Positions 7,882 through 30,962 of a stretch of DNA of 32,000 nt are shown here, in pieces. Each line of letters starts with the position of its first letter. The stretch's first letter is position 1. The translations under genes were made by a program, and so were the position numbers. The stretch comes from Geotalea uraniireducens Rf4 (lineage in GTDB: Bacteria; Desulfobacterota; Desulfuromonadia; Geobacterales; Geobacteraceae), in assembly GCF_000016745.1 (NCBI RefSeq), contig NC_009483.1, positions 1,440,001 to 1,472,000 on the forward strand, in the 5' to 3' direction. The notes beneath the pieces are model-generated. The model was not told the origin of the DNA. It saw nothing but the letters and a program-made list of their open reading frames with translations, and searched no databases.

Positions 7882-8447
7882 CGTGAAAGTTTATCCAGTT
7901 CCAGGTTCAATTCAAGCACATTCACCCGCTGCTCCCCTAAAAAGCCGAGCTGGCGGTCCTCTGTCCGGGCGTCGACGAGCTTTTTGAGCTCTTCCATCGT
8001 CATTCCGCGCGCCTTGGCGACACGGGGGACCTGTACTTTGGCCGCTTCCGGCGTAATGTGAGGATCGAGGCCGCTGGCCGAGGCCTCCACCAGGTCGGCC
8101 GGGATGTTGCCGGTAATGCCGGTGTCATGGAGCGATTTTACCCGGTCGCCAACGGTCTTGAGGAAATCGGGGTTGGTCGGCCCTGAGTTGGAGCCGCCGG
8201 AAGTCATCGGGTTGTATCCGAAATCTGTGGTGGCGGAAGGACGGGGCCAGAAGTATCGCGCATCGGAGAATGGCTGGCCGATGAGTGCAGAACCGATCTC
8301 CCGCCCGCTCTTGTCGGTGATGAAGCTCCCCTTGGCCTGTTTGGGGAAGACTGCATGGGCGATGCTAGTGACGACGGCCGGGTAAACTCCCCCGCACAGG
8401 ATGGTAAAGACGATAAAGAACAGAATGGCGGGTTTTATCTCTTTCAT
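7878..8447 (-). CDS. kdpC: K+-transporting ATPase subunit C
   Basis: MKEIKPAILFFIVFTILCGGVYP... has a single N-terminal TM and KdpC-like motifs (SGGSNSGPTNP, SASGLDPHITP). Start set at ATG 8447 with an AGGAGA RBS. The ORF-track extension to 8531 translates the REP elements. Confidence 0.9.
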   Translation of the reverse strand: MKEIKPAILFFIVFTILCGGVYPAVVTSIAHAVFPKQAKGSFITDKSGREIGSALIGQPFSDARYFWPRPSATTDFGYNPMTSGGSNSGPTNPDFLKTVGDRVKSLHDTGITGNIPADLVEASASGLDPHITPEAAKVQVPRVAKARGMTMEELKKLVDARTEDRQLGFLGEQRVNVLELNLELDKLSR

Positions 8448-8458
8448 GATTTTCTCCT

Positions 8459-8541
8459 GTAGGGGCGGACGGCGTCCGCCCTGGTCGGTAATAGCAATAT
8501 CGGGGATGATGGCAACAAGGGCGCATGCCATGCGCCCCTAC
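8459..8541. repeat. REP doublet (REPIN/BIME-like) in the kdpB-kdpC gap
   Basis: GTAGGGGCGGACGGCGTCCGCCC (8459-8481) and its inverted partner GGGCGCATGCCATGCGCCCCTAC (8519-8541). Each is GTAG plus a GC-rich palindrome. Confidence 0.6.
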
Positions 8542-8551
8542 GAACATACCG

Positions 8552-10618: not shown

Positions 10619-10647
10619 TATTTTGTTCTCCGTCGTTTCATTGTTCC

Positions 10648-10800
10648 GTAGGGGCGGGGTTGCCCCGCCCGCCTTTCATCGCAGATTGTCAAGGGCGGGG
10701 AAACCCCGAGGGCGGGGAAACCCCGAGGGCGGGTAAACCCCGAGGGCGGGTAAACCCCGAGGGCGGGTAAACCCCGAGGGCGGGGAAACCCCGCCCCTAC
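10648..10800. repeat. REP doublet with internal minisatellite in the kdpA-kdpB gap
   Basis: Left end is GTAGGGGCGGGGTTGCCCCGCCC (10648-10670). The right end read in reverse complement is GTAGGGGCGGGGTTTCCCCGCCC (10778-10800). These 23-nt terminal inverted repeats differ by one loop nucleotide. Confidence 0.6.
10693..10794. repeat. 17-nt tandem repeat x6 (GGGCGGG[G/T]AAACCCCGA)
   Basis: Units start at 10693, 10710, 10727, 10744, 10761 and 10778. Each unit holds a CGGGG-AAA-CCCCG mini-hairpin. The array runs to within 2 nt of the kdpA stop codon (10797-10799). Confidence 0.9.
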
Positions 10801-12575
10801 CGCATCATAATCAATTGTTCGGCGATCGGCCCCATGGCCAGGGCCGGGAAAAAGGTGAGCGCGCCGACGATCAGGATGACCAGCGTCAGCCAGAGGGCAA
10901 AAGGCGCCTGATCGGTGGGAAGGGTGCCGAGGCTGGGTGGTACGTATTTTTTCTCCGCCAGGCCGCCGGCCATGGCGAGCACCGCCACCGCCGGGACAAA
11001 GCGGCCCAGTAACATGGCCACCGCGCCGGTCAGATTGTAGAAGAGGGTGTTGCCGTTCAGCCCGGCGAAGGCGCTGCCGTTGTTGTTGGACATGGAGGCA
11101 AAGGCGTAGAGCACCTCGGAGAGGCCGTGGGCGCCGGAGTTATTCATGGAGGAGACCCCGGCCGGCAGGATCATGGCAATCCCCGAGAAGATGAGGACCA
11201 GGATGCCGGAGGCGAGGACGGTAGTGATCGACATCCACATCTCCCGCACCTCGATCTTCTTGCCGAGGTATTCGGGGGTGCGGCCGATCATCAGCCCGGC
11301 GACGAAAACTGCGATCACCACGAAGGCGAGCATGGTGTAAAGCCCCGTGCCGACTCCGCCGAAAATCACCTCGGAGAGGAGGATCAGGGAGAGCGGCACC
11401 ATGCCGCCGATCGGGGTGAGGGAATCGTGCATGGTGTTGACCGCGCCGCAGGAGGTGCCGGTGGTGGCAGTGGCGAAGAGGGCGCTCCCTGCCAGGCCGA
11501 AGCGGGTCTCCTTCCCTTCCATGTTGATGCCGTGCACGCCGAGCTTCGCCACCAGCGGGTTGCCGCTACTCTCCGCCCGGTAGAAAACGCCTATCGCCAG
11601 GATGAGGATGGCCAGCATCACCGCCAGGAGCGCCCATCCCTGACGGGTATTCCCGGCCATGCGGCCGAAGGTATAGGTGAGCCCGCCGGAGATGAGGAGG
11701 ATCAGGAAGACCTCGAAGATGTTGGAGAGGGGCGTCGGGTTTTCGAAGGGGTGGGCCGAGTTGGCGTTGAAGAAGCCGCCGCCGTTGGTGCCGAGCTCCT
11801 TGATCGCCTCCTGGGAGGCGACCGGCCCCATGGGAATGGTGACTTCCTTGACCGTCACGCTCTCGGTCACCGGATTTCCCTTGGCATCCTTGATGGGGGT
11901 CCCCTTGGCGTCCAGCCGCGGTTTCTCAAAGCTGGTTGCCTGCACGAGCGGCACCGTTTTATATGGGGAGAAGTTCTGGATCACCCCCTGGGAGACCAGG
12001 AATATTGCGGCAATGAGCGAAAGCGGCAGGAGGATGTAGAGGGTGCACCTGGTCGTATCCACCCAGAAATTTCCGAGGGCGGAGCTCTTGCGCCGCACCA
12101 GACCGCGGATTGCGGCAATCGCTATGACGATGCCGGTGGCGGCGGAGGTAAAGTTGTGCACCGCGAAGCCGAACATCTGGGTGAAGTAGCTGGCGGCCGC
12201 TTCACCGCCGTAATTCTGCCAGTTGGTGTTGGTCGTGAAGCTGATGGCTGTATTGAGCGCCAGTGGCCAGGAAAATGCCGGTAATTTCTGCGGATTGAGG
12301 GGCAAAATTCCCTGGAGGAGCAGCATCGCAAAGAGGCTCACGGCGAACACCAGGTTAAAGAGGAGCATGGCACAGGCATAGCGCTTCCACCCCATCTCAT
12401 CGTCCTTGTCCACCCCGCAGATCCGATAGAGGAGATTCTCGCAGGGGACAAAGACGGGCGACAGGAGGGTCCGCTCTCCCTGGAAGACTTTGGCCATGTA
12501 AGTGCCAAAGGGCTTTATCAGCGCCAGCAGGACGACGAAAAAGAGAATCGTTTCCAGCCATTCATACGGGTTCAT
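10797..12575 (-). CDS. kdpA: K+-transporting ATPase subunit A
   Basis: 592-aa polytopic membrane protein with a KdpA-like N-terminus ([13 protein letters not shown]...) and selectivity-filter-like TNGGGFF. GGAGA RBS. Confidence 0.95.
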
Positions 12576-15125: not shown

Positions 15126-15650
15126 TCATTATTTATAGTTGCCATCAATAATCGGCCAAAGCCGACCGTTTCCAATGGTTCGCCGCAGTGCAGACATAAA
15201 CAAAACCACTATCCCACGCAATTTCACCTTGATAACAGTTACTTCCACTGGCTGGAGTTCTTGGGGTATCAATACGAATGGTATCTCCTGCCATATGCAG
15301 TTTTCCGGTTCCTGAGAGGGCCGGGGCCGTGGTGCCTATACCCACAATGCCATTGTAGTTTATACGCATTCTTTCCGGTTTATATTTATCTACTCCGGTA
15401 GAAAAACGAATATTGGAGGGGGCATAGTTTAAGGCAACAGGGCCTGCTTGACTATCTATGCCGAGTATTATGCTTGCTGAGGCAAGATATTGTGCCCCAT
15501 CATAAGCGAGTCCGTGGAAGGCAGCGACATTATCGCCCTGTAACACAGCAGTTGGCGCGGATGATGAACCGCGACTCCCTCTGTGCCAATATAAGTGAGA
15601 CACTTACCTCCCCTTAAATTACTGTAGAGGGTGGGGAGGAAAGAAAGGAT

Positions 15651-16154
15651 ATGACCATCAGTAATGTGAAGCGCATCCCGGTAATTGCAGGAGCCCGTAA
15701 GGCGAGTGCAATTACCGGGATGGCCCCCGAAGATTTAACTCGGCAACAGCAGGAATTGACTACCTCACCGCCTGACCCGGAGGTAGCGGAAAAGCCTGTA
15801 CGCAGGCGTTTCACGGCTAAGTACAAACTTGACATCCTAAACCAAGTCGACTCTTGCACCAAGCCCGGTAGCCTGGCAGCGCTATTACGTCGAGAGGGGC
15901 TTTATGCTTCCAACCTCAACACCTGGCGCCGCCAGCGGGATGAAGGAAGCCTTGCGGCGCTTACGCCCAAGCAGAGGGGCCGTAAAGCGCTAAAGCCCGA
16001 TCCCATGGCCGTCGAGAACGAGCGACTGCGCAAGGAGATTACCCGCCTTGCCAAACGCCTCAAACAGGCCGAGTTGATCATCGATGTCCAAAAAAAAGTC
16101 TCGCAGATCCTGGGGATCACCTTGGATACGCCGCCAGAGAGCGAGAGCGACTGA
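15651..16154 (+). CDS. IS3 transposase OrfA (HTH/leucine zipper part)
   Basis: 167 aa, typical IS3 OrfA. It ends just downstream of the A-run slippery site. Confidence 0.85.
   Translation: MTISNVKRIPVIAGARKASAITGMAPEDLTRQQQELTTSPPDPEVAEKPVRRRFTAKYKLDILNQVDSCTKPGSLAALLRREGLYASNLNTWRRQRDEGSLAALTPKQRGRKALKPDPMAVENERLRKEITRLAKRLKQAELIIDVQKKVSQILGITLDTPPESESD
16090..16098 (+). promoter_or_regulatory. programmed -1 frameshift slippery run (A8G)
   Basis: AAAAAAAAG lies in the orfA/orfB overlap window, like the IS3-family A6G/A7 motifs. Confidence 0.6.
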
Positions 16155-17152
16155 TGGAAGCTGTCGAAATACTTGCCCCTGATGTGGGCACCGATCCTGC
16201 CTGTAAAGCTCTTGGTGTTTCCCGTGCCGGGCTGTATCGCAGGCGCGCAATCAGCAAGACAGCGCCGCGTGTACCCCAAAAGCGCCCTGTGCCGCCACGG
16301 ACCTTGCCATCAGAGGAAAGGCAGGCAGTACTCGATATTCTGCATTCCGAGCGCTTTCAGGACAAGGCACCCCATGAGGTGTATGCAACGCTTTTGGACG
16401 AAGGGGCCTATCACTGCTCGATCCGCACGATGTATCGAATTCTCGAAGAAAACGCCGAAGTCAAAGAGCGGAGAAATCAGTTGCGGCATCCCGACTACAA
16501 AAAGCCTGAGCTTCTGGCAACGGCCCCAAATCAAGTCTGGTCGTGGGATATTACCAAATTGATGGGGCCTGCTAAATGGTCCTATTTTTACCTCTATGTG
16601 ATTCTCGATATCTTCAGCCGCTATGTGGTCGGCTGGATGGTTGCAACCTGCGAGTCGTCGGAACTGGCCAAACGGCTGTTCAAAGAAACGTGTGAGAAAC
16701 AAGTCATCCAGAAAGGGCAGTTAACGATCCACGCCGATCGCGGCTCTTCCATGAAATCCAAGCCGGTAGCTTTTCTGTTTGCTGATCTGGGGATCACTAA
16801 AACGCACTCAAGGCCCTATACGAGCGACGACAACCCATATTCGGAAGCCCAATTTAAAACGCTGAAATATCAGCCTGATTTCCCGGAAAGATTCGGCAGT
16901 ATAGAAGACGCAAGATCGTTCTGCCAAACCTTTTTCCCCTGGTATAACCAGGAACACAAGCATTCCGGCATCAGCCTACTTACACCTGAAGTAGTACATT
17001 ACGGCAGAGCTGAGGAAGTCATCCGATCAAGGCAAACCGTGTTGACTGCTGCTTATGCAGCCCATCCTGAACGCTTCGTCAGGAAAATACCATTACATAA
17101 ACCGTTACCGGAAGCGGCGTGGATCAACCCGCCAAAACCGGCCACTAGCTAA
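16154..17152 (+). CDS. IS3 transposase OrfB (DDE/rve integrase core), probably made as an OrfAB fusion
   Basis: WSWDIT...LYVILDIFSR...HADRGS...NPYSEAQFKTLKY are typical of rve-domain cores. The -1 frame is open from 16091 to the ATG at 16154. Confidence 0.9.
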   Translation: MEAVEILAPDVGTDPACKALGVSRAGLYRRRAISKTAPRVPQKRPVPPRTLPSEERQAVLDILHSERFQDKAPHEVYATLLDEGAYHCSIRTMYRILEENAEVKERRNQLRHPDYKKPELLATAPNQVWSWDITKLMGPAKWSYFYLYVILDIFSRYVVGWMVATCESSELAKRLFKETCEKQVIQKGQLTIHADRGSSMKSKPVAFLFADLGITKTHSRPYTSDDNPYSEAQFKTLKYQPDFPERFGSIEDARSFCQTFFPWYNQEHKHSGISLLTPEVVHYGRAEEVIRSRQTVLTAAYAAHPERFVRKIPLHKPLPEAAWINPPKPATS

Positions 17153-17522
17153 AATTCGCTACACTAAATTCGACAGGTAAGTGTCTCAAAGTCATTGACA
17201 GATTCCGACTTCTCTTAATATTGACTACTCCAGCCGGCCCCCCATCGCCATATTGGTTTATGGTTAGCCCACGGTCAGGATTTCCCAATTCTTCGACAAG
17301 ATGAAGCGCAGAAACAGGAGCTTGTGTTCCCACGCCAAGACGCTTTGTTATGGGGTCGTATTTCAATCCAGGAGCAATAAATGTTCCATCGTCCTGGACG
17401 GTGAAAACTTTGTTTTTACTTGCGTCTTTTACTGAAAACTTGTCACTTCCGGCTATTGCTGGTGATGCAAATAACATTACAAACAGAGCAATTACGATAT
17501 GGTGCATAATCCCCTCCTATAT

Positions 17523-18140
17523 TTATTGTGCAATTGTTGTCCAGGCTAGTCCACGGCTTGTCTTCATACAAACCTGCAAGGTGTCGGTTGCCCCATTAAT
17601 AAACCAGAACGTACCACGTAGAGTATCAACACATGCTGGTTGTGCCGTGGACGGAGCTATTTTGAGACTCCCAACCAGCTCCATGTTGCCGTCATAGTCA
17701 ATTTTTAGAGTCGGTTTAAGGTTAGGAATGGGTTGGCCTTGCGTATTCCCTTTGCTTAGAAAGATGCGATATCCCGCGCCACCAGAACCGACAATTACTG
17801 CTTTGCCATCCGAAGATTTTTGTACCCATCCATGGTTCGCATCATAAGCAGCTCCCGATGACAGGAAGAAATTGTTTTCACCTGCCGAAGTAATGTAACC
17901 ACCGGTATCACTGTCATTGGCTGAGAAATGCATTTGAGAATTCAGCGCCCCGTCATTGTTCGCCACATCAACTGCATATCTGGGCACAACATTGACCCCT
18001 ATAAGCCCTGAATCAGTGGCAGTAAAAGCGTTGCTTGTCTTGGTTGAGTTTTTTACAACAAGTCTATCAGCTGCGGTAACGTGATGTGAATTCAACAACA
18101 GACTGCAGAAAAACACTGTCATAAATATATATATTCTCAT
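17523..18140 (-). CDS. small secreted tail-fibre-like protein, paralogue P2 (intact)
   Basis: Signal peptide MRIYIFMTVFFCSLLLNSHHVTA, then RLVVKNSTKTSNAFTATDSGLIGVN. C-terminal ACVDTLRGTFWFINGATDTLQVCMKTSRGLAW. Start set at ATG 18140 (GGGAG RBS); an alternative ATG is at 18152. Confidence 0.7.
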   Translation of the reverse strand: MRIYIFMTVFFCSLLLNSHHVTAADRLVVKNSTKTSNAFTATDSGLIGVNVVPRYAVDVANNDGALNSQMHFSANDSDTGGYITSAGENNFFLSSGAAYDANHGWVQKSSDGKAVIVGSGGAGYRIFLSKGNTQGQPIPNLKPTLKIDYDGNMELVGSLKIAPSTAQPACVDTLRGTFWFINGATDTLQVCMKTSRGLAWTTIAQ

Positions 18141-18806
18141 GTAAGCTCCCATTGAATATAAATGACTGCACGACGGGGGAATTTGCTCAGAGTGCGCAAA
18201 GTCGTATGCAATAATGAAATAAAAGTCTTAATTACGGACCCAATGTTGCGGTTTTCCAAGAATAGGTCGAAGCGGCTGTTTGTACACAGACTTTCATTAC
18301 GTCTGCTGTCCCAACTAATTCAAACCATATAGTTCCGCGTGAATTCGCGTCACACGCTGGAGCAGTCCCTGTGCTATTAATCCTTACACCGCCATAGACT
18401 TCCAATTTTTGGTTAACTAAATTGCCCCCCGAGTTAATGCCAACGTTGCCGTCACCTTGGATTTTCATACGTATCGGCGCCGAAGACGTCCCTTTGGGAG
18501 TGGTTGAAAAGACGAGTTGAGTCCCATGCGCCGTTGGCGTAAAAGCCTCTTCAGTAATCGCCGTTATTGCAGCGTTGCCTGATGGGCTAAAATTAGTACC
18601 ATCGTGACCACGGAAATTGATATTACCTATCGCTGCCCCCGCTGGGAGAGCAGTGGGGGATGCGGCAGTGCCATTGGCACTTCGCATTGTAAAACGGGCT
18701 TGATCGTTAATACTGGTTGCGGTAAAAATAAGTTGAGTAGTACTCACTCCATTAATTGGCCATTCCCATTGAAGGTCAAATGGATTTATTGGAGATACCC
18801 CAACGC

Positions 18807-20704
18807 CAGCAATTCCCGCTGGCGCAGTAACACCCTGAAAAAATGTATGTTTTCGGAAGTCGCTTCGTAATGATTCTCTCATATTGGAGCATTTCAAGGC
18901 CAATTTGGCAGTGCTTCGGAGTGCTTGCCCACGTAGGCCGCGACGGCCACTCGAGGAGAGGTAACCTATTGATAATATAGATAAATAATAATCTGCCGCA
19001 GTGCTTTTTCGCTTGACAAGCGGCCTGGAAGGCGGCGGCGTTTTTCCTCATTAGCATTTATAAACTACTGAGGAGATCGCCCATGCCCCCGAAACGTATC
19101 TAGCCACCCAAGGTAAAAGCTCCAACCATGAAGACTGTCAAGACTTACCTCAGCAAGGACGCTCAACTGGGCGTGCTTCGATGCTGTCTCGAGCACATCC
19201 CGGACCAACGAGACGGAGCCAAGATTTCTCTGGCGGACGTCTTGATGTCCGGGTATGCGATGTTCGACCTGAAGGACCCCTCGCTACTGGCTTTCGACGA
19301 ACGCCGCTGCCGAGATGCCGCCAATCTTCAGCGGATTTACGGTATCGGCAAGGTCGCTTGCGATACTCAGCTGCGAACCGTGATCGATCCGGTTGATCCG
19401 GCAGGGTTGCGGCCGGGTTTCAAAACCATCGTCGCGACGCTGCAGCGGGGAAAGGCGCTCCAGCAACTGGCCTACTACGAGGGGTACTACCTGCTCAGCC
19501 TGGATGGAACCGGCTCCTTCGGCTCCGAAAACCTCAGTTCGGCCTCCTGTCTGGTCAAGAACAAAAGCAACGGCAAGAAGCTTTATTATCAGCAGGTGCT
19601 TGGTGCCGCCCTGGTCCATCCCGACAGCCGGGTGGTCATCCCCTTGGCGCCGGAGATGATCATTCCCCAAGACGGTGCGACCAAGAACGACTGCGAAAGA
19701 AACGCCTCCAAGAGGTTCCTGCCCAACTTCCGCGAGGATTTCCCGAGACTGCCGGTGATCGTCGTCGAGGACGGCCTAAGCTCAAACGGGCCGCACATAC
19801 GGGATCTGCAGCAACACAACATGCGTTTCATTCTGGGAGCGAAGCCGGGGGATCACCCGCTCCTGTTCGAGAACCTGACGGACGCGATCAAAAAGAAAAC
19901 GGCCACGACATTCGCTCAAATCGACCCGAAGAATCCGCAGATAATGCACTCCTACTGCTTCCTCAACGACACGCCCCTCAACCAAGCCAACCCGGATCTG
20001 AAAGTGAACTTCCTGGTTTACGAGGAGCACAATGCCAAGACCGGAAAGACCCAACGCTTCTCCTGGGTGACCGACTTACCCATTACCGAGGAGAACGCCT
20101 ATATCCTGATGCGGGGGGGCCGCAGTCGCTGGAAGATCGAGAACGAAACCTTCAACACCCTGAAAAATCAGGGATACAATCTGGAGCACAATTACGGTCT
20201 GGGCAAAGAGCACTTGAGCGAAAACTTCGTGATGCTGATGATGCTGGCTTTCCTGGTCGACCAGGCCCAGCAGCTTTGTTCGCCCCTGTTTCAGGCCGCC
20301 CTGGAAAGGGCAGGGAGCAGAAGATCCCTCTGGGAACAGCAGCGAAATCTCTTCAACAGCTTCGAACTGGACTCGATGGCCACGATCTACACCATGATCA
20401 TCAACGGGTTCAGGAAGCCGAGCCCCGATATCATTTATGACGAGTAGCACCCGGCGGTAAGCATCACATCCTGAACTACCGACCACCGCCGGCGCAAGGA
20501 CACCCTTGGATCGAAAGGGAGAAGTGCGCCCGCTGCCTGCCGGAATATCGTTATGGTGCGGTGACATCATGCTCCACATGCATGACGAGGGCATGAAAAG
20601 GCGAAACTAGATTGCAGATTAACTACTTTTTGGTTAGAAAGTCGTCCTCCAGGCAAATTTGACTGTTTTACACGGGATTGGCATTTGTTAACCGGGAATT
20701 GCTG
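18807..20704 (+). mobile_element. IS4-superfamily insertion sequence
   Basis: 12-bp perfect terminal inverted repeats CAGCAATTCCCG (18807-18818) and CGGGAATTGCTG (20693-20704). 9-bp direct repeat CCCCAACGC at 18798-18806 and 20705-20713. Confidence 0.85.
19128..20447 (+). CDS. DDE transposase, IS4-like
   Basis: 439 aa with a C-terminal RSRWKIENETFNTLKNQ block resembling the IS4 Y-R-E-K signature region. A 9-bp target duplication fits this family. Confidence 0.8.
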   Translation: MKTVKTYLSKDAQLGVLRCCLEHIPDQRDGAKISLADVLMSGYAMFDLKDPSLLAFDERRCRDAANLQRIYGIGKVACDTQLRTVIDPVDPAGLRPGFKTIVATLQRGKALQQLAYYEGYYLLSLDGTGSFGSENLSSASCLVKNKSNGKKLYYQQVLGAALVHPDSRVVIPLAPEMIIPQDGATKNDCERNASKRFLPNFREDFPRLPVIVVEDGLSSNGPHIRDLQQHNMRFILGAKPGDHPLLFENLTDAIKKKTATTFAQIDPKNPQIMHSYCFLNDTPLNQANPDLKVNFLVYEEHNAKTGKTQRFSWVTDLPITEENAYILMRGGRSRWKIENETFNTLKNQGYNLEHNYGLGKEHLSENFVMLMMLAFLVDQAQQLCSPLFQAALERAGSRRSLWEQQRNLFNSFELDSMATIYTMIINGFRKPSPDIIYDE

Positions 20705-20968
20705 CCCCAACGCCCACCTTGCCTTGGTCCGACACAGTAAACATGCTTTGGCCATTAGGGGCTTTCACATTAAACCTATTTCCAGCCATTGCCGGGACCG
20801 ACATGCCTGTTATCGCAGCTATGAATAGAACCGCCATATTCATCATCTTCATATCAAGACCTCTTATTTCTATAAACGGTTTGCTTTAGTGTCATAAAAA
20901 TCAAATATCAATCAAGCTTGAACGGTTTTTATTTTGCTCCATGCTTGACTGCTATAAACAAGCAGAAG

Positions 20969-22537
20969 TCACTCTAAAACTACGGAACTTTCAACGTTTA
21001 TATTTCCATCACTAATAATCATATTCCCGTTGATAGTCAAACTTCCGGTTATTGAACTATAGTCACAGGAGTAACCGCCATCCAGGGTCACGGACACATT
21101 GCGGTCCAGGCTCAGGCTCTCCATATGATCGTACATATTTCCCTGAATTGTGTCGCCGTTTGCTGCGGCATTGTAGGCAGCTTGAAGCGAGAGATAGTTG
21201 ACAGGCGTAGCTCCGGCCAGTCGCGCCGGGTAATTGGTGCAGGGCGGCGCAGAAGCGGCTCCAAAGTTAGCTATTATAGTATGGTTGCTCGCAACATTGG
21301 CAAGAGTGTAATAGTATCTTTTCCCAGAAGGCCCCTGCATCGATGACAAAGTCGCAAGATTGACTGCAGCGTTATCAACAAGAAGGCTTGTGAGAGTGCC
21401 TGGCAGATAGGAGTAGCATGTATTTGTTGATGATTCATAGGTGCCATTTGAGCAGGTCGGTGATGCTGTATAGGTGGTTGAGACGTAACAGTTTATGCCT
21501 GAGAGCGTCCCACCGCTAGGGCAAATAGGGGTATTTTGACAGGTGGTGCCTATAAGGGTGCCACCATTGGGGCAGGAATAGATAGTAGTTTGACCATAAA
21601 TACCTGGAGACGGTGCGACATATCCATATAGGGTATACCCGGAGGTGGGAGCACTGGCAACTAGACCCCAGGTATTACCATTGACAGCCGATATCGGTGA
21701 TGTTGTTCCGTTTGCATTGCTGCTTGAAATATATCCGTATAATTTTGAAGCTGCACAATATCCAAAATTTATTCTATATATCGCAACGCCCGTAGAGGCA
21801 TTAATGTTGTTACATGTATGTGAGAAAGAATTGTATACTTCTAGATATACAGGAAGGGTAGCTGTTGCAGTACTGGTTCCTGAGGCATACCCAGCTATTC
21901 CATAGCAGCCATTAGCGGTAGTGCAAATTAAACCAGGGCCGCCTATTAGTGTTCCAAATGTACCTATGTATATAGGCTGGTCGTAAGTTGTTCCTCCAGT
22001 TAGTGTACCGGTCGCCGAGTACTCACATTGGCCGCTTCCCGTATTCAAGGAACCCTGCCCAGCAGAACATGATGCCTGATATGTCGATGTCACTAATTGT
22101 GTGCATTGTGAGCCATTGAGAGTATACCCAGAAGGGCATCCCGGCGGAGTCTTCTCACAGCGGTTATTGGCAGTAACAAACGTGTAGCCGCTTGGGCAGG
22201 TTGATGCCGTTGGTGAAGTACCCTGTTCTATAAAAAAAGTCTGGTTGTTACCTGAAGCAACAGTTATTGTGCCTGATGGAACAATCGAGCCGTATCCTGA
22301 AGCCATCGCATTGATGGTAAGGTTGTTGAGAAGTTGGCCGATGTAGGTACTCTTCACCGTCCGATTGCCGACCTTATCGTAGTCATAACTTATGACGGTC
22401 CCGTCCTCGTATTGCGTCCACTTCAAACGGTCAAATTCATCGTAGCCATGGCGTGAAGATTGGGCTGCAATGGATTTGGAGACCGGCAAAATGGTGAAAA
22501 AAGCCAACGCTGCGAATACCAATATCTTGAACGGCAT
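20969..22537 (-). CDS. secreted Cys-rich protein with an N-terminal YD repeat
   Basis: Start set at ATG 22537 (GGAGG RBS; MPFKILVFAALAFFTILPVSKSIAA signal peptide). YD/RHS-like YDEFDRLKWTQYEDGTVISYDYDKVGNR. Six C-[PS]-[SNA]-G...C hairpin-like motifs. Confidence 0.75.
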   Translation of the reverse strand: MPFKILVFAALAFFTILPVSKSIAAQSSRHGYDEFDRLKWTQYEDGTVISYDYDKVGNRTVKSTYIGQLLNNLTINAMASGYGSIVPSGTITVASGNNQTFFIEQGTSPTASTCPSGYTFVTANNRCEKTPPGCPSGYTLNGSQCTQLVTSTYQASCSAGQGSLNTGSGQCEYSATGTLTGGTTYDQPIYIGTFGTLIGGPGLICTTANGCYGIAGYASGTSTATATLPVYLEVYNSFSHTCNNINASTGVAIYRINFGYCAASKLYGYISSSNANGTTSPISAVNGNTWGLVASAPTSGYTLYGYVAPSPGIYGQTTIYSCPNGGTLIGTTCQNTPICPSGGTLSGINCYVSTTYTASPTCSNGTYESSTNTCYSYLPGTLTSLLVDNAAVNLATLSSMQGPSGKRYYYTLANVASNHTIIANFGAASAPPCTNYPARLAGATPVNYLSLQAAYNAAANGDTIQGNMYDHMESLSLDRNVSVTLDGGYSCDYSSITGSLTINGNMIISDGNINVESSVVLE

Positions 22538-22588
22538 ATTATAACCCTCCGTGATTAAATGCATAAAAGGTCACCTCTTCAACTATCT

Positions 22589-22915
22589 TCAATCCTTTTT
22601 CTCTTTCTGTTTTTTCTTACGTTCGCGCAATTCCGCCACGGCTTCTTGCCCTTTAGTTGTTGCATAGTATCTGACAGCGCCAAAAACGGTAAGCGCAATG
22701 GTGACACCTATTTTCTCTGACACCGTAACACCAGGCATAAGCAAAATAGGTAATATTACGGTAGGAAACATAAATATCCCAATAATTATGGAATAATGCT
22801 TCCAATTAAGATTATCAGCGCCAACTTTCCTTCCATAAAAATATATAGTAATTCCTATACCGAATACTCCTGCTAAACCGCCGTAAAACAGCCAGTCACC
22901 GTATAAATTGCTCAT
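22589..22915 (-). CDS. small 3-TM membrane protein, candidate immunity protein for the Rhs toxin domain
   Basis: 108 aa with three hydrophobic helices and a Lys-rich tail (RERKKKQKEKKD). AGGTGA RBS. It starts 50 nt after the rhs stop, in an AT-rich cassette. Confidence 0.55.
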   Translation of the reverse strand: MSNLYGDWLFYGGLAGVFGIGITIYFYGRKVGADNLNWKHYSIIIGIFMFPTVILPILLMPGVTVSEKIGVTIALTVFGAVRYYATTKGQEAVAELRERKKKQKEKKD

Positions 22916-22968
22916 ATTGTCACCTTAATTTTCAATAGTCACACTTTCTGAGAGTATAATAACTGTCA

Positions 22969-23649
22969 CCACCAATCACCTCCAGCATCACCATCATCTC
23001 CACCATCATCATCAGACCCACCGCCCGAAGAACCTGAATTACCAGTCGTTGAACCAGAATTATCGGATGTAGAGCCAGTATTACCAGAAGTCGAATTATT
23101 GCCAGGTGTGTAGTTTTGATACCAACTGTTGAAATCATAAGTCGGTAAAGTATAAGTAGGAATTGAAGGTAAATCGGGCATAGGCGATTGAGATAACAGA
23201 TAAGACAAACTACCATCAATTTGACCAGAACCCAAAAGGGATTGGTCGAATGCATTACCTTTAGCAGTCGATGAAGAATGTTCACCATAAGTCTCAAAAA
23301 CATCTTTTGTAAATAAAGGAACTCCAGCGGCGCGAGTCATTGTAGCGATTGACCTGTCCGCAACTTCTGCAGTTTCAACAACTGTTTCAATGTTTCTTCC
23401 TATCTTTGCCGCAGCTGCAGCGCTTCCAACACTAAGAAGATTGAGTGATTCCAGCCCCATAGTTGCTTTGTAATCAAAGTCCGACATAGTTCCAGTTTTG
23501 TGCTCATAATACGCATTCCCCATTGATAATAAAGACAAGCCAATTCCAGTACCTTTAACAATGGCACCACCAACGCCGGTCGGAGCTGCATAAACTGCCG
23601 CTGTATTAACAACAGTGCTACAGAACCCCAATGCGCAAGACCTGGGCGA
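22969..23649 (-). other. Rhs C-terminal (post-DPSGH) toxin domain, family unassigned
   Basis: 227 aa after the core motif. It has Gly/Ala-rich hydrophobic stretches (AAVYAAPTGVGGAIVKGTGIGLSLLSMG; LLSVGSAAAAAKIG). An S/T/N/G low-complexity region follows. The tail is acidic (GGGSDDDGGDDGDAGGDWW). Confidence 0.6.
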
Positions 23650-24975
23650 ATGGCCGCTAGGGTCTCTGTATTTGACCGGATTATTCAGCGCATAAGCATA
23701 CCTGTTCAGACTCTGCGGGTTCCCCGGACTAGGCACGATACTATCGGGAGAAATAAACCGCCCAATATCGGGGTCATAAAGTCTTGCACCGTAGTTATAG
23801 AGTCCTGTTTCATAATCCAGCTCCTGGGCGGTGTACTTATGAGTCATGCCACCTATTGGCTTGCTGTCCAGCCTTGTTTCGCCGTAAGGGTAGTAGTAGA
23901 TGTCCTCCACCTTGTTGCCGTAGTCATCGGTCGTAATCGCCGTACTTCCAAGGTGGTCAGGGTGGTAATATATGGTCGAACCCTGGAAGTTCCTCGCAAT
24001 TCTGGTATTTCCGGCAAAGATGTAATTGCCGCAGTTACCATTGATGCATTCGTACAATTTACCGATGTACATCCTTGTATTCGAGTTTAACTTTTTCACC
24101 CTTTTTCCGTTGCCGTCATAAATGAACGTCGTTGTGACACCGTTCATGGTAGCAGTTTTCGGCAAGTTGTCCGGGGTATACGTTACCGTCCTCTGGCCGT
24201 CGGATGTCATATTGCCGTTGTCGTCGTACTGGTAGACCCTACCGGGTGCGGTCGAGGCGGTCTGAACGGCATGGGCACGGGTCGGATCAAGGGTATAGCC
24301 GACCGAGCCATAAGTAAGGTTATGCGGGATGGAGGGATTGACAAGGTCATTCAGGTCAATCATATTCCCCTTGCTGTCATAGTTGTAGGTGCGGTAAAGC
24401 AGACTATTCTGCAGCTGATCGGCCTTCATGGCAAAAAGGCGGTAATTTTGCGGATAGTACCAGTAACTGGTGACGATGCCGTTGCCATAGTAGAGTTTGC
24501 CTGGCTGGCCGAGGGCGTTGTACTCGTCGTATTCCGCATAGCCGCTGATGTCGAACAGGTTGCCAGCCGCGTCGTAATGGTAATCAACGGATTCGCCATC
24601 CGGGTAAGTGATGTTGTTCAACCTTCCCATGCCGTCATAGGATTTCACAATGGTATAGTCGACGTTGTCTACCGTTTTGACGGTTCTTGTCACCCTGCCG
24701 GAGAGGTCATAATTGTAGGTGGTCTTCCCGGAACCGTCTGTCATGGAGGTAAGCCTGCCAAACGGATTGATTGAGGTCGTTTCGTCGTAAGTAAAGACTA
24801 CGTCTGTTTCACCCGAATCTGCCGGGTAATGTTTGTGCGTTGGCCGGTTCAAAGCATCGATGTCGAAGGTGATGAGCTGGCCATTTACCTTGTGATTGGC
24901 ATCTTTGACCCAAAGCAGGCTGCCATCGGGATAATAGCGGCGGGTGTCAAGGTAGTTGTCGCCTCTGTTGAATTT

Positions 24976-26001
24976 TTATGCGGCGTCAAGAAGTTCGACT
25001 TCCGCCGTTGGTTCAGGGTTAAGATAAACTGTTTCCACTGGCTCCCAGTTTCGGATGTTTTTTGACCAGCGGTTTGGGTTTTGTTGCCGGGCCTTCTCGT
25101 ATATCTCCCGGCGGTTTAACAGGATGGCTTTCTCCCGGCCGAAGTGGCGATCGTCCGGGGTGACGAAGCGAATGCCGCTGTGCAGATGCTCCGTGTTATA
25201 CCAAGCGACGAAACCATCAACCCAAGTCTGGGCCGCTGCCAGACTTGAAAAAGGCCGACTCGGATAACCAGGTCTATATTTCATGGTTCGGAACAGCGCT
25301 TCTGAGAAAGGGTTGTCGTCACTGACCTGTGGCCTGCTGAAGGAAGGAATTACGCCCAGGCGCTGGAGAGTAGCCAGCATGGTCGCCCCTTTCATCGGGC
25401 CGCCGTTGTCGGAGTGAAGAATCAGGCCTTCCGGATTGATGCCGAGCCTGATACAGGCTTTCAGAAACAGCCTGGCGCTATAGTCATTGGATTCTTTTAA
25501 AAACACCGTGGACGCTACGATCTTGCGGCTCCAGACATCCATGATCATGTAGAGATAAAAGAACTGCCCAAGAATCGGGCTCTTCAAGTAGGTGATGTCC
25601 CATGACCAGACCTGGCAAGGACCGGTAGCCACATGTTCTTTTGGCTTGCGGCTGGTGGCGGGCCGGGAGGGTTCCCGGTGAGTCATCAGCCCATCGTCTT
25701 TGAGCACCCGGTAGAAACTCGATTCCGACGCCACGTATATTCCCTGATCGGCCAATTGCGGCACGATCTGTTTCGGCGAAATATCCCGAAACGCCGGGGA
25801 GTTTGCAATATCGATGATGTTCTGCCGCTCCGACGGAGCCAGCTTGTTCGCCGGTTCTGCGACTGGCCCATGTCGCCGATCTGCTCCGTCATCCTGGAGA
25901 TTCCAACGCTGGAACGTGCGAATGCTCAGCCCGATGGCGACAACGGCCGATTCAAGTCTCGCTCCGGAATGGGTTGCCTCTTCAATAAGTTGCCCGATCA
26001 T
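24976..26001 (-). CDS. IS3 transposase OrfB (rve/DDE core)
   Basis: WSWDITYL...LYMIMDVWSR...HSDNGG...NPFSEALFRTMKY. The -1 frame is open from the A-run to its ATG. Confidence 0.9.
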   Translation of the reverse strand: MIGQLIEEATHSGARLESAVVAIGLSIRTFQRWNLQDDGADRRHGPVAEPANKLAPSERQNIIDIANSPAFRDISPKQIVPQLADQGIYVASESSFYRVLKDDGLMTHREPSRPATSRKPKEHVATGPCQVWSWDITYLKSPILGQFFYLYMIMDVWSRKIVASTVFLKESNDYSARLFLKACIRLGINPEGLILHSDNGGPMKGATMLATLQRLGVIPSFSRPQVSDDNPFSEALFRTMKYRPGYPSRPFSSLAAAQTWVDGFVAWYNTEHLHSGIRFVTPDDRHFGREKAILLNRREIYEKARQQNPNRWSKNIRNWEPVETVYLNPEPTAEVELLDAA

Positions 26002-26531
26002 CTGCCGTTCCTCTTGTCCGTGGGCTCGTCCTCGCCCCCCCAGATCGATTGGACTTTTTTTTTGAGGATCAAAATCGCGGCGGCCTCGGCCAATGCTTTA
26101 TCTTTGCGCAGTAATTCTTTTTCCAGTGCATGAATTTTGCGAGTTTCCTCTGATGTTTTTGAGGAAGGCCGAGACGGTTTTTGCAGCCCCGAAAGCATCA
26201 TGGCGCGCCACTCGCGTAACTGTGCTTCATGAATTCCATTGCGACGCAGGAAGGCGCCAAGTTGATCTTCGGCAACCGTCTCGGCTTCGATGACGATTTT
26301 GAGCTTTTCTTCGGCAGACTTGTCTTGTGGGCGCTTTGGGGACATTGTTCTCCATGGTGCTTCAGAAATTGGGGAGTTACCAGATTCATTCACGACATTT
26401 GCGTCTCGAAGCCAGCGAGAGAGTGATTGTTGGGGAATTCCCACTTCTCGGGATAGAGCTGAGGCCGAGACGCCATTAGGGCAGGCCATCTTGCGAACCA
26501 GGCTGGATTTGAATCCTTGTGTGTATGTCAT
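25998..26531 (-). CDS. IS3 transposase OrfA
   Basis: 177-aa HTH-type OrfA. Its stop overlaps the orfB ATG (ATGA). Confidence 0.85.
   Translation of the reverse strand: MTYTQGFKSSLVRKMACPNGVSASALSREVGIPQQSLSRWLRDANVVNESGNSPISEAPWRTMSPKRPQDKSAEEKLKIVIEAETVAEDQLGAFLRRNGIHEAQLREWRAMMLSGLQKPSRPSSKTSEETRKIHALEKELLRKDKALAEAAAILILKKKVQSIWGGEDEPTDKRNGR
26055..26063 (-). promoter_or_regulatory. programmed -1 frameshift slippery run (A9 followed by G on the minus strand)
   Basis: The minus strand reads CTC AAA AAA AAA GTC within orfA (LKKKV). The -1 frame continues into orfB. Confidence 0.6.
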
Positions 26532-29500
26532 TATAGATCCTTGCTGCCCCCAGATGTTGAAAAAATACGGGTCGCCGGCTTTTGCCGGTCCCGGTCTTTC
26601 GAGCTGAATCGCAAGCTCGCTACGCTCGTTGCAATTCAGCTCGAAAGACCGTGGCTAAACAACCCATCTGAGGCGACAACTATTCTGACACAGGGGGATA
26701 GCTGTATTCCCAATACCCCATGTCCGGGTCGGTCATGTTCTTTTTCCGCCCCAAGGTGTCGTACTCAATGTGCGTTTTTTTCTGATTGGCGACGGGCACG
26801 CCCATCTGGTTGGCATCGATTACATCCGTAAGATTTCCAAGAACGTCGTAAGTATAGGTGGTAGTAGCGTAAAGTGTGAACTGGCTTGGATTCTGAGTTG
26901 TGTCGCATGTCGTGGAGGTCCCCGTGTACTCTTCCACTGTAACAAGACGTCCCAGTGCATCCCGCGTTTCACGCCTGCGGTGGCCGTTTTCGTCTATGAA
27001 GACGCTCACGAGGTCGTTGTAGCAGGCCAGTGTGAACGTGTTGTCCGGGTTGGTTGTTCTCGTCACTCTTCCCATCGGGTCATAGGTGTAAGTCCGGTAA
27101 ACCGGCGTTTCAACGCCCTCAAAATAAGGGGCTGAAACACTGTTCACCTTTCCTCTTTGGTCATATACCGTTTCGGTGACGATAACCTTGTTGTCAGGCC
27201 CGCTTTTCCGTACCTTGAATGTCCGTCCCAAGCCGTCGAAATAGGAGGCGGACCACATGCCCAACTGATTATAGGTATAAACGTTTTGACTGCCGACCGT
27301 ACCGAAGGAGTTATAAGCAGTACTCGTCGAGAACAGGTCCGGCTGAATATCCTTTGTCTTTCTGCCGAATACATCGTACACCGCCGTTATGGTCGCGTTG
27401 TTGGGGTCGGAAATACTCTTCAGTTGGCCAAAGCGTCCATTGTCGGCGGCTATGCCGACGCCATAATAGGCGGAGGTCGTCGTCTGGGTCTTGGCATTGG
27501 TGCTTGAGACAGGGAAAGTTTGATAGATGGTGTCAAAACCTGTTGTGGTTACGTTGCCGTTAGGGTCGCGGGTGCATACCGGATTGCCGTAGCCGTCATA
27601 AGCCGTCCGGGTTTCAGAGTTGTTGCCACCATTGAGCCAGCGGGATACGACGGTTAGGTTCCCATTAGTTGGAGTATGATTGTATTGGGAGGCGGCAGAG
27701 CAATTGGCAAGAGGGAAGTCATCGTAATAATAATCCGTCTGGCTGACCTTCAGGTTGGTACCGATATTTGTATCGCCTATGCCTTGGAAAACGCTAACAG
27801 TGGCTGGTAAAGATACTATCCAGTTGGTAACATTTGGTGAAAACTGCCTCTCGATGGTCATGTTCAGGGAGACATTAGCAGGATTCATGATGTCACCATA
27901 ACGATCTTCGCGGGTCACATTGCCGTAATTTGCATGAGGTGAGGTAAGGTAATCATCGTAGTAGTAGACGGTTCGTGTCTGTCGAGCGCTACCACTATCC
28001 CTGCACTGCCCGTATGCTTGCCCATCACAGATGTAGGTGTCTACCTTGGTGGCTGGACTGTAGTTGTAAGGGGTTGACGTGTAAGTCGAGTATGATGTCT
28101 CAGTTTCGGAATATACTTTACCCTGACCGTCAGATATCCGTGTCCTGTAAGGTTTCCCTTTCATGAACCCAACGGTCGCCGATGGGTTGTTCACGTCTAC
28201 AGCGGTATCATCCCCTTGGTGAAACCATGTTTCTGTTACGGTCAGTTCATTGTTCTTTCCGGGACCGATTACCTTCGCAGAGTTGAAGCCGCGAAAGTCC
28301 TTTGCACTGAAATTGTAGTAGCCGCCGGAATAGGAATAGTTCGAGGTGGAGGTGTTGTTGTTACCGTCACTGACGGATACGCTTGAGATAAGTTGCATGG
28401 TGAATGGAAGCTGGGCATACCATGAGGAGGGTGAATAGGAGACGCTGATTTCGCCGCCAAGGCCGTTGGAGACGTGCGTAAGAAGGTCAGTCAACGGCGC
28501 GTTGGCATAGCCCGATTCCCAATGAAAAGCTCCACCTGGATAAGAGGTGTCATGTGGATAGCACACGATGTCGGTCTTGCCATCGGCATTATAGTCTCCG
28601 GCAAAGCATTGCTGGCTGACTGACGTTTCAGGAGAAGGGCCGCCGTCCCAAGAAAGGGTGTTCCAGCCGTTTCCGAGAGATAAAGCCGTGCTCCAGATAC
28701 CGCCGGAGGTGTAGCAGGAAATATCGGTTTTGCCGTCGCCATTGAAATCGCCGGACAAGCATTTTGTGTTGATTGGAAAGGAGACGATGGCGCCGCCCAT
28801 CGAGAAAGAGGCCGTGTCCCAGCTGCTGCCGGTTGACAGTTGAACATTCCACAAACCGCTGCCGGAGGCACAGGCAATATCGGTCTTGCCGTCACCGTTG
28901 TAATCTCCAGTCATACAGATTCCGCTCAGGATGTAGTTTGATTTGACGAAGTCCGGAGCCATCCCGTTGCTATACCAAGTGGCAGGCGTCCAACCGTTGC
29001 CGTTGGAGAGGTACATATTCCAGGTGCTGGTGTTCCCGGAGTTGCAGGCAAAGTCGGTTTTGCCGTCGCCGTCGAAGTCACCGGTCAGGCAGTTGTTGGT
29101 TGGATAAGTGAAGGTAGTTGGCCCGTCGGACCATTGGACTGGGCTGCTGCCCCATGCGCTGCCGGTGGACAACGCCATTTTCCAGGTATTGCTGGCATAA
29201 CAGGCAAAGTCCGACTTGCCGTTGCCGTCGAAATCACCGCCAAAACATTGAGTTATGGGCAGAACAGTTGGAGCGTTATGCCAGGTTTCTTTAGTCCAGA
29301 TTTCTCCGGCTCCTCCCGGGAAAACCATGGTCCAGTCCCCGTTATTGGCAAAATTGCAGGCAAGGGCGTTTTTCCCTTCGCCATTGAAATCGCCGGTAAC
29401 GCATTGATGTCCCAAAGAATCCTGGGAAAGATCCGTAGGCTTGTTGCCGTCAGGTAACCATTGCAAAGATATCCCATTCACGTCAAGATTGTTGAATAAA

Positions 29501-30962
29501 TACTTGAGGTCCCACCCGGTGCTACCGGTAGAGCAAAGGATATCGAATCTGCTGCCGAATTTGCCGGGGATGCAGTACATGCCGACAGGGAGCGGCATAG
29601 ATACCCCGATAGGGTCAGAAAGACTCCATCCGCCGCTGGATGTTCCGCCGGCAACGGTGTAACCGTTGGAGTATCCAAGGGTGATAGGCGGCTTTGTGGT
29701 CGTACCGTCACTGCCGTACTCTGTCACCGTGCCGAGAACCGACCTGTTGGTCAGTGGACTGTACTGGTTGCCGGTCGTCGTCGAGTCGGCATCATAGTTC
29801 AGTTCATATTTTCTTACCCGCAAGGGTTGTGTGTTAACTGTGTTATAGTTGGACCAAACCTCGATGGTCTTGAGCCGCTTCGCCGTGGTGACGGCAAAGT
29901 TGGTTGTGTACATTGTCGGGGCGTCGTTGCGGTCTTCGAGGATGAACTTTACAGAATTGGTAGGGGGGAGTTTATGAGTGACAGGGTCGTTGCCGGTGTA
30001 GTCTATCTCGTTCAAGTATAACTGGTTCCGGTCCGGGGTGTAGTTGAGAGTGACGTAATTGCCATTCGTATCGGTTATCAGGTCAAGACACCATTTGAAG
30101 ACGTGGGCCGGCTTGTTGGGGTCGTAGACTGTGGTGTTGGGTTCGTGACCGAAACGGAAGCGTACCCCCTTTTTATCAATCGCTTCCCAATAGGTTCCAT
30201 AATTTATAAACCGAATGAAGTTCCCTTCTATCTTGGCGCGGTATTCGGAGGTGCCGGGGAGATTGACCAATTCCGTTACCCCGCCCGGTCCGCGCAATAG
30301 AAAGTCGCTGGCGTCATAGTTCACGCCTCCTTTGGTGCTCCGCTCTATTGAACCCATTTCCAGTTCCCAGCCGACACCCAGCCAACCGTTGCCGTTCGTG
30401 CTCCGATAGGTGAGGACTATGCCGGGATCTACACCTCTACGGCCGGGCGGGACTTCAATAGGAATGCGATAGCTCATGGTCCCTGTGAAGAGGTCTGGTA
30501 AAGGCGTGTCGCTGTTTGCCGAGGTGTCGGTTCCGTCAGCGACTTCCTTGCCGACAACTTTCTCGTCTGCCGCATGGGCATTTACGGTGAAGAAGATGGA
30601 AAGCGTCAGGCATAGAACGAGAACGGCGTTTTGCAGGGAATTGCCAGCACAACGGATGGGAATCATGTGGAGCCTCCGTTTATATTGCATTAAATTAAAA
30701 GGTAACTATTCAGCGTATATGTTTTGACGTCGGAGGATAGGCATCCTGCCTGTCTTCAGGCGAAGTTTCATCAGCCTGACAAGTTTGAACTGAACACATG
30801 TTCAAGCGATAAACCCGCTTGAAACACAGGCTAGAAGCCTATTGGTTGGTTGGGGAACCATCAAGATATCGCAGTGCTGCCGTTGTCGTTCGTTTTTTCT
30901 TCTTTCCCGGAATTCCTGGCTAACCCTTTCTTGCCTGATTCATATTTCAGAAGATAAACAGG

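Follow-up and report, generated by a model that had tools for sequence, protein, structure and literature searches.

The tip of a split rhs gene and the gene behind it

The window analyzed here, 32,000 nt of the Geotalea uraniireducens Rf4 genome (NC_009483.1, positions 1,440,001 to 1,472,000), carries on its minus strand a very large rhs gene in two pieces, open reading frame (ORF) 26680-30690 (1336 aa) and ORF 22966-24852 (628 aa). Its C-terminal tip (CT) is followed by a small gene for a 108-aa membrane protein. These two, a candidate toxin and its candidate immunity protein, are the subject of this study; positions are those of the window unless another locus is named.

The N-terminal part of rhs (26691-30690, minus strand; the ORF as called, 26680-30690, extends a few codons into the end of an insertion sequence, IS) combines a SpvB/TcB-like N-terminus, FG-GAP repeats, a TcdB middle/N domain and the first RHS repeats. 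Pfam matches were obtained for SpvB (PF03534, 9.7e-24), FG-GAP_3 (PF13517, 1.2e-20) and TcdB_toxin_midN (PF12256, 1.2e-14), weak PDB matches were found to the N-termini of YenB and TcdB1, and the protein appears to start with a Sec-type signal peptide.

RHS repeats were recognized by RHS_repeat (PF05593, 4.1e-05 in the N-terminal part and 2.8e-14 in the C-terminal part) and by TIGR01643 of NCBIfam (2.9e-11). The C-terminal part of the Rhs shell (23650-24944, minus strand) resembles, in PDB sequence matches, the C-terminal plug regions of TccC3, YenC2 and Tse5. The Rhs_assc_core model TIGR03696 (8.5e-23) covers residues 320-401 of ORF 22966-24852, and the last residue of the match is the histidine of DPSGH (23650-23664; the full NPVKYRDPSGH spans 23650-23682, minus strand). 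DPSGH is presumed, from what is known of the family, to be the boundary of autoproteolytic cleavage. Judged by its domains, the carrier is a Rhs polymorphic toxin with a TcB/TcC-like shell, an assignment on which the split of the gene has no bearing.

The two pieces of rhs are separated by an IS3-family element (24945-26690, minus strand, 1746 nt), located 1.3 kb upstream of the CT, an interruption which had been missed when the sequence was first read. Its orfA (25998-26531; Pfam HTH_Tnp_1) and orfB (24976-26001; Pfam rve, rve_3 and HTH_32) overlap as in IS3, and imperfect terminal inverted repeats of 34 nt, 76% complementary, are located at 24944-24977 and 26658-26691. Excision of 24945-26690 in silico yielded a single ORF of 1992 aa. 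Across its full length, this ORF shares 63% identity with an intact protein of like architecture, 1969 aa long, that is encoded at a metagenomic locus (L004, see below). The flanks of the element (…GCGGG / IS / CAGGGGG…) are compatible with several readings of the target-site duplication; only the excision of 24945-26690 preserved the frame, with 6 extra residues remaining relative to the L004 protein. The rhs gene is insertionally inactivated in this genome and the gene for the 108-aa protein is still intact; since rhs is split, the toxin is probably neither deployed nor delivered here. In the representative protein library, this rhs gene is present only as a C-terminal fragment of 592 aa (P0009).

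The DPSGH motif is followed by 227 aa, which include the segments AAVYAAPTGVGGAIVKGTGIGLSLLSMG and LLSVGSAAAAAKIG, a low-complexity run of S, T, N and G, and the end …GGDWW. An earlier reading of the window, made from the letters alone (the sequence-only reading), had described a Rhs core motif followed by a tip of this length and with these features; all the quoted peptides are present in the translation, and ORF 22966-24852 and the end of the TIGR03696 match at DPSGH agree with the boundary that it placed. Beyond DPSGH the sequence showed no relation to the CTs of other Rhs proteins with structures in the PDB. The motif SCALGFC was considered as a lipobox and rejected, as F at -1 does not fit.

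The candidate immunity gene (22589-22915, minus strand) starts 50 nt downstream of the CT, behind a good Shine-Dalgarno sequence (AAGGTG). Hydropathy analysis revealed three hydrophobic helices in its product, and AlphaFold2, using a seven-sequence alignment, modelled helices at residues 3-31, 38-58 and 65-107 (mean pLDDT 76.5). The protein, which ends in the basic tail RERKKKQKEKKD, is by both methods nearly all transmembrane (TM) helix and has no soluble or globular domain, in agreement with the three TM helices and poly-Lys tail first ascribed to this 108-aa product. The charges of loop 1 and of the RERKKKQKEKKD tail predict, by the positive-inside rule, a topology with the N-terminus outside and the C-terminus inside.

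Three motifs of the 108-aa protein are conserved among its homologues: YGDW.FYGG, FP..LP.LL.P and RYYATTKGQE. A Foldseek search of the PDB with the model gave nothing below E=4.5. Sub-threshold Pfam matches (Yip1 and DUF7139, E ~1e-3, below the gathering score) were judged to reflect generic TM-helix similarity.

The base composition changes at the DPSGH boundary. GC content is 0.505-0.523 in the Rhs core, 0.44 in the CT and 0.39 in the 108-aa gene; GC at third codon positions falls from 0.62-0.64 in the core to 0.29 in the CT, with 0.36 for the 108-aa gene and 0.44 for the gene that follows. The fall in composition at about 23650, first seen by eye in the letters, is thus present in both measures.

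Relatives of the pair and its mobility

Homologues of the CT are very rare. A word-indexed search of 5.8 billion clusters returned P0001 only, and a profile search gave P0001 again; when 1.84 billion representatives were scanned exhaustively with HMMER, three CT proteins emerged, namely P0009 from the window itself, P0001 and P0010. No further CT was found in GTDB species genomes, JGI metagenome contigs or IMG/VR, and none by tblastn against 72,556 plasmids. In total, about 15 billion proteins were searched, yielding four other CT loci and one short contig with a remnant of the tail only. For the 108-aa protein seven homologues were found, with no match in genomes, viral contigs or the same 72,556 plasmids (tblastn). 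Two weak 37% matches to it in metagenome contigs (L006 and L007) had no Rhs context and were set aside as unrelated or too distant.

At every one of the four other CT loci a homologue of the 108-aa gene lies immediately downstream of the CT. L001/L002 holds an orphan CT fragment, P0001 (L001, 9237-9884), which keeps …NPINYRDPSGH, is frameshifted past about residue 150 and is followed by P0003. In L003 a partial Rhs protein carries the same CT, repeats included, ends in …SDDWW and is followed by P0004. In L004 the intact 1969-aa SpvB/FG-GAP/TcdB/RHS protein carries the same CT, ends in …GGDDE and is followed by P0005. In L008 the CT ends P0010, a 1724-aa Rhs protein with a signal peptide, DUF6531 and a TEN_YD-shell and without SpvB, and the partner is encoded 26 nt past the stop codon by an ORF that had not been called, with a product 46% identical to the 108-aa protein. 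The last 137 aa of P0010 are 41% identical to CT residues 1-135 by HMMER and 45% by alignment. The two genes of the pair diverge from those of the window in parallel (83, 72, 77 and 45% identity for the CT; 81, 65, 68 and 46% for the partner). Their co-occurrence at other rhs tips, which the sequence-only reading had put forward as a check of its proposal, was found at all of these loci.

The out-of-frame tail of P0001 matches an alternative frame of the window (ORF 22932-23303). This frame was considered for the tail of the CT and rejected: L003 and L004 support the frame used here, and it is P0001 that is frameshifted. Upstream of P0001, L001 encodes a 209-aa signal-peptide protein with YD repeats (8475-9104) and, downstream, a 699-aa NHL-repeat lipoprotein.

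The comparison with P0010 divides the CT into a shared core and an appendage. P0010 terminates a few residues past the region aligned to CT residue 135, from which we place the shared toxin module at about 135 aa. This core (residues 1-135; 23245-23649, minus strand) is the sole part of the CT conserved in P0010. Residues 136-180 (23110-23244, minus strand) are rich in Ser, Pro and Tyr; their conservation is limited to the Geobacter-type relatives (window, L003 and L004), P0010 having no such segment. Residues 181-227 and the stop codon (22966-23109, minus strand) comprise about three 7-aa [ST][ST]GN[ST]GS repeats followed by the acidic tail …SDDDGGDDGDAGGDWW. As P0010 lacks both the S/T/N/G region and the acidic tail, these are not part of the shared core, and residues 136-227 are proposed to be a lineage-specific appendage outside the toxic core.

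Both genes are under purifying selection and are real coding sequence. Against metagenomic homologues, dN/dS, the ratio of nonsynonymous to synonymous substitution rates, was about 0.11 for the CT core, 0.07-0.11 for residues 136-180 and 0.26-0.40 for residues 181-227; residues 136-180 are as constrained as the core, and residues 181-227 are under weaker constraint. The 108-aa gene gave 0.13-0.18 against the Geobacter-type homologues and 0.29 against the distant L008 copy.

The pair occurs on two kinds of carrier. In L003 and L004 the CT ends Rhs proteins of the TcB/TcC type, and in L008 it ends a Rhs protein of the DUF6531 type with a quite different N-terminus; the order and spacing of the pair are conserved on both of these scaffolds, unrelated to each other, as would be expected of a swap cassette. 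The pair is also richer in AT than its carrier in L004 and L008. An exchangeable toxin/immunity tip had been suggested from the composition of the window, and the two scaffolds and the AT-rich pair bear the suggestion out.

Isolated parts of the pair were found as well. An immunity homologue, P0006, stands without CT behind two-component genes (L005, 5493-5834); another, P0008, stands alone beside a cupin gene on a contig of 979 nt (84 nt upstream); and in the short contig L009 (1-229) the partner P0007 is preceded by no more than a decayed remnant of the acidic tail, …DDGGSDDEGLEDW and a stop codon. Together with the orphan CT P0001, such standalone copies and remnants are typical of the dynamics of Rhs toxin and immunity genes. 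That the cassette is mobile, moving between Rhs scaffolds and leaving orphan CTs and orphan immunity genes behind, is well supported by these sequence comparisons.

The CT could, on the other hand, be a non-toxic cargo or sequence in decay at the end of a gene that no longer functions, with the 108-aa protein as an unrelated neighbour. The disruption of rhs by the IS element, the frameshift of P0001, the extremely small size of the CT family, the low-complexity regions of the CT and its poor structure prediction (see below) would all agree with this. However, purifying selection is strong on both genes, the same CT ends an intact gene (1969 aa) in L004, the order and spacing of the pair are kept on two unrelated scaffolds at 41-46% identity, and two standalone copies of the partner lie beside unrelated genes (L005 and the P0008 contig). 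We regard the absence of a toxin/immunity pair as very improbable. The CT and the 108-aa gene very probably form a toxin/immunity cassette.

The ends of the CT vary among the relatives. One or two terminal Trp residues are present in the window, in L003 and in the L009 remnant (…LEDW), and are missing from L004. In the window, L003 and L004 the acidic CT tail (DDDGGDDGDAGGDWW; 22966-23010 in the window) co-occurs with a poly-Lys/Arg tail of the immunity protein (22589-22625 in the window); P0010 has no acidic tail, and the tail of its partner is shorter and less basic. This pairing, seen in four cases (n=4), might reflect an electrostatic tail-to-tail contact or might be a coincidence.

Proposed action at the membrane

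Searches for known families gave no match for the CT. In Pfam, the whole 628-aa ORF matched RHS repeats only (E<=0.1), and the five CT cores gave just three chance matches at E<=10. No CT match was obtained in NCBIfam (E<=1) or in PADLOC, and PDB sequences gave chance-level matches only, whether searched by phmmer or by profile (E<=10). No profile of a nuclease, NADase, ADP-ribosyltransferase, deaminase or peptidase matched the CT at E<=10. The lack of a recognizable catalytic signature, remarked on in the sequence-only reading, persisted in all four collections, and no confident profile match to a known toxin family, which that reading had named as the result that would speak against it, was found there. 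By sequence, the CT cannot be placed in any toxin family described so far; it represents a new and very rare family, accompanied by a new family of immunity proteins.

The core of the CT begins with two weakly hydrophobic segments (residues ~4-22 and 33-48), conserved in 5/5 sequences and joined by a polar or charged turn (PTGVGGAIVK in the window, EDDLLAAKVTK in P0010). KD19 maxima of 1.25-1.53 were obtained for these segments, and a simple sum on the Hessa scale gave +3 to +5 kcal/mol, a value similar to that of the third TM helix of the 108-aa protein. In the core helices that follow the segments, conserved acidic and polar residues abound.

An immunity protein without a soluble domain, a conserved hydrophobic hairpin, the lack of an enzymatic signature and the precedents described below lead us to favour a toxin that acts at the membrane. 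We put the probability that the CT is a pore former or ionophore, by analogy with Tse5-CT and its immunity protein Tsi5, at about one half. Cleavage, toxicity, protection, membrane insertion and pore formation are all steps which we infer. The Rhs shell would encapsulate the CT after aspartyl autoproteolysis at DPSGH, and the CT would be released at the inner membrane of a target cell. There the two small-residue-rich helices (~4-22 and 33-48) might insert as a hairpin and, together with the amphipathic helices that follow, give rise to an ion-conducting pore or an ionophore, by which the membrane potential would be dissipated, in the manner of Tse5-CT and of the ionophores that act in contact-dependent growth inhibition (CDI). 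The three-helix inner-membrane immunity protein would block the CT through helix-helix contacts within the membrane.

The closest precedent is Tse5 (RhsP1, PA2684), a substrate of the Pseudomonas aeruginosa H1 type VI secretion system (T6SS). Tse5-CT is a 149-aa Rhs-encapsulated fragment which inserts spontaneously into lipid layers, forms cation-preferring pores and depolarizes cells, and it is countered by Tsi5, an inner-membrane protein with two TM helices (PMC9637101, PMC10684867). Like it, the CT of the window is the C-terminal part of a Rhs protein, is of comparable size (core of about 135 aa vs 149 aa), lacks an enzymatic signature and would be encapsulated by the shell and released by aspartyl autoproteolysis; the hydrophobic and amphipathic helices of Tse5-CT have a possible counterpart in the two weakly hydrophobic segments of the CT and the helices predicted after them. 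Tsi5, like the 108-aa protein, is a small integral protein of the inner membrane encoded immediately downstream of its toxin (PMC9637101, PMC10684867), with two predicted TM helices in place of three. Tse5 has a PAAR-like N-terminus and is delivered by the T6SS, whereas the protein of the window has a predicted Sec signal peptide and a SpvB/FG-GAP/TcdB_midN N-terminus; and pore formation has been demonstrated for Tse5 and is proposed here. No Tse5 chain was matched by the CT or its profile in the PDB (E<=10), in a library which includes 8cp6 and 9i9y, the presence of the CT chain in these entries being unverified.

The CDI ionophores of the CdiA-CT EC93 family are helical toxins paired with small, very hydrophobic CdiI proteins, and toxin and immunity protein co-diverge (PMC11630599). 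Predicted all-helical polymorphic C-terminal toxins, hydrophobic immunity partners and co-divergence are features common to both systems. In contrast, the GxxxGxxxG zipper, the sole element common to the CDI ionophores, is not conserved in the family of the CT (T33...V37 in L003 and L004); CdiI is a two-helix hairpin of 72-100 aa with both termini cytoplasmic, vs 108 aa and three helices here; and the carrier is CdiA, exported by type V secretion, and not Rhs. The CT had no sequence similarity to the CDI ionophores, and tblastn against the 72,556 plasmids gave none.

Immunity proteins of the E1/Ia colicin type (ImmE1, Iia) are inner-membrane proteins that have a length of about 110 aa and three TM helices. 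Pore-forming colicins are soluble before insertion and contain a moderately hydrophobic, Ala/Gly-rich helical hairpin, to which that of the CT can be likened. The disordered Gly/Ser/Asn-rich, Trp-containing tail of the CT loosely recalls the translocation domains of colicins, which are N-terminal and not C-terminal. The colicin channel domain is larger, about 200 aa in 10 helices vs a CT core of about 135 aa, and delivery differs, being by a Rhs cocoon here and by the receptor-binding architecture of the toxin in colicins. Neither the profile of the colicin pore-forming domain nor any other Pfam model was matched in the search of the five CT cores (E<=10) that gave the three chance matches.

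Tox-WTIP, the only pore-forming toxin domain in the census of polymorphic toxins by Zhang et al. 2012, is a C-terminal domain without enzymatic function that is predicted to cross the membrane with two helices and is carried in some cases by RHS proteins (PMC3482391). Its motifs RxxR and Wx[ST]IP are absent from the CT, which has no Trp in residues 1-135 and no Pfam match. By sequence, the CT is no member of the Tse5-CT, CDI ionophore, Tox-WTIP or colicin pore families; by analogy, it may work like these toxins.

Several observations weigh against a pore former. Neither segment of the CT, nor any other, attains the usual hydropathy threshold of a TM helix, and the second, Ala-rich one is broken by K-C-K-K in P0010. 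The AlphaFold2 model of the CT is all-helical and unreliable (mean pLDDT 42, from a three-sequence alignment). The small-residue ladder of the window (A17-A21-G25-A29-G33-G37) is not conserved as a GxxxG ladder: G33xxxG37 is found in the window and P0010 only and is lost in L003, L004 and P0001, with L29, T33 and V37 at the ladder positions in L003 and L004. As this column-by-column check of the alignment found the ladder unconserved, a glycine zipper is not a feature of the family, and the glycine-zipper-like segments described in the sequence-only reading did not hold up. Eleven charged or polar residues of the core (E49, D57, D59, E67, N70, N86, E88, R106, K115, D116 and E119) are invariant among sequences just 45% identical, and these, with the D-x-D pair D57 and D59 among them, could equally mark a catalytic or ligand-binding site. 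RYYATTKGQE, in which the immunity protein is best conserved, should by prediction lie on the cytoplasmic side, not an obvious place to intercept a pore former arriving from the periplasm. Finally, no delivery apparatus (TcA or T6SS) is encoded among the genes of the window.

The invariant residues and the position of RYYATTKGQE would be explained by a bipartite toxin. The hairpin (residues 1-50) would then serve only for translocation across, or entry into, the membrane, and residues ~50-135 would fold into a small helical domain, either an enzyme or a binding module, with the cytoplasm or the cytoplasmic face of the membrane as its site of action; the immunity protein would neutralize it through the conserved cytoplasmic juxtamembrane helix RYYATTKGQE. 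There are precedents in Tde1, whose glycine zipper is reported to serve translocation (PMC10240207), and in two-domain CDI toxins (PMC11630599). Such a toxin is nevertheless unlikely, both in its two-part design and in this mode of neutralization. None of the enzyme profiles listed above was matched even at E<=10, and the immunity protein is embedded almost entirely in the membrane, with no globular domain. Immunity proteins of polymorphic toxins that act in the cytoplasm are normally soluble.

The invariant residues also bear on a toxin that would attack the membrane without forming a pore, by acting on a membrane-embedded or lipid-linked target, such as lipid II or the undecaprenyl-phosphate cycle, or by jamming an inner-membrane transporter, the 3-TM protein being a decoy or shield. 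The D-x-D pair and the Glu residues would suit metal-dependent chemistry on a lipid that contains phosphate, the immunity protein is an integral membrane protein, and CDI ionophores depend on specific membrane-protein receptors (PMC11630599). We consider this improbable: the CT matched neither colicin M nor TelC, nor any family of phosphatases or lipases, and at 135 aa the module is small and, according to a model of low confidence, made up of helices alone.

Delivery, neighbouring genes and significance

The carrier resembles the BC cocoons of Tc toxins (TcdB2-TccC3, YenB-YenC), in which a SpvB-like region, an FG-GAP beta-propeller, the TcdB middle/N region, the RHS shell and the C-terminal aspartyl-protease plug are likewise found, here in one polypeptide, and the cargo is likewise the hypervariable C-terminal region. 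Unlike these cocoons, it has a predicted Sec signal peptide and no TcA-like gene in the 32 kb of the window. The dedicated membrane immunity gene downstream points to antibacterial rather than insecticidal use.

A third gene (20969-22564, minus strand) follows the immunity gene at a distance of 24-51 nt. Its product, a secreted protein of 531 aa, carries a signal peptide and a single pair of YD/RHS repeats, together with a segment resembling InlB-B repeats and an insert rich in Cys; its C-terminal region, of about 90 aa, is conserved and has the motif Y..LQAAYNAA..G..I...L.GGY. Homologues occupy the same position in L003 (4302-5210, E 1e-42) and L008 (10244-11416, E 9e-12, over the C-terminal 81 aa), so that the gene is conserved in three loci including the window; L001 and L004 have none. 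No Pfam, NCBIfam or PDB assignment was obtained for it. The third gene may be a third component of the cassette.

CT residues 136-227 could conceivably be an import module analogous to the disordered Gly/Ser/Asn-rich, Trp-containing translocation domains of colicins (TolB-box type), perhaps working with the third gene; we consider this highly speculative. If it were true, a Sec-secreted Rhs cocoon with neither TcA nor T6SS would carry a pore-forming cargo across the outer membrane of a competitor, a new entry route independent of a secretion system.

The genes of the window comprise the kdp operon, two-component systems, IS elements and small secreted proteins. The latter are paralogous, are all encoded on the minus strand (15145-15603, 17145-17507, 17523-18152, 18232-18903 and 20688-20852) and are interspersed with IS elements. 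They share an N-terminal motif, F.VK......F.V.D.G.(I/V)G, to which several add a C-terminal one, C.....RGT.WF.......(L/M).VC.......W. A second IS3-family element is located at 15651-17152 (plus strand; orfA 15651-16154, orfB 16154-17152), and an ORF for an IS4-like transposase, with a weak match to NF033591, at 19128-20447 (plus strand). With these two further transposable elements nearby, the rhs locus lies in an IS-rich island adjoining the kdpABC/kdpD operon (5212-12575).

Rhs and other polymorphic toxins are a main source of new antibacterial activities. Uncharacterized Rhs tips are common, and the CT is one among many; the Rhs polymorphic toxin is a well-known kind of system, and what is new here is the CT family together with its immunity family. 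To our knowledge, Tse5-CT is the only Rhs cargo shown to form pores. The cassette offers a second candidate for a pore-forming Rhs cargo, unrelated in sequence to Tse5-CT, with a genetic signature that consists of a 3-TM immunity protein as constant partner, exchange between Rhs scaffolds unrelated to each other, and orphan copies of CT and immunity gene. In Geobacter-type bacteria its carriers are cocoons of the TcB/TcC type, presumably exported by Sec. If toxicity and depolarization were confirmed, the CT core would be a compact membrane-active domain of about 135 aa with a matching inhibitor, and the third gene and the acidic, Trp-ending tail would be leads to how these cocoons reach their targets.

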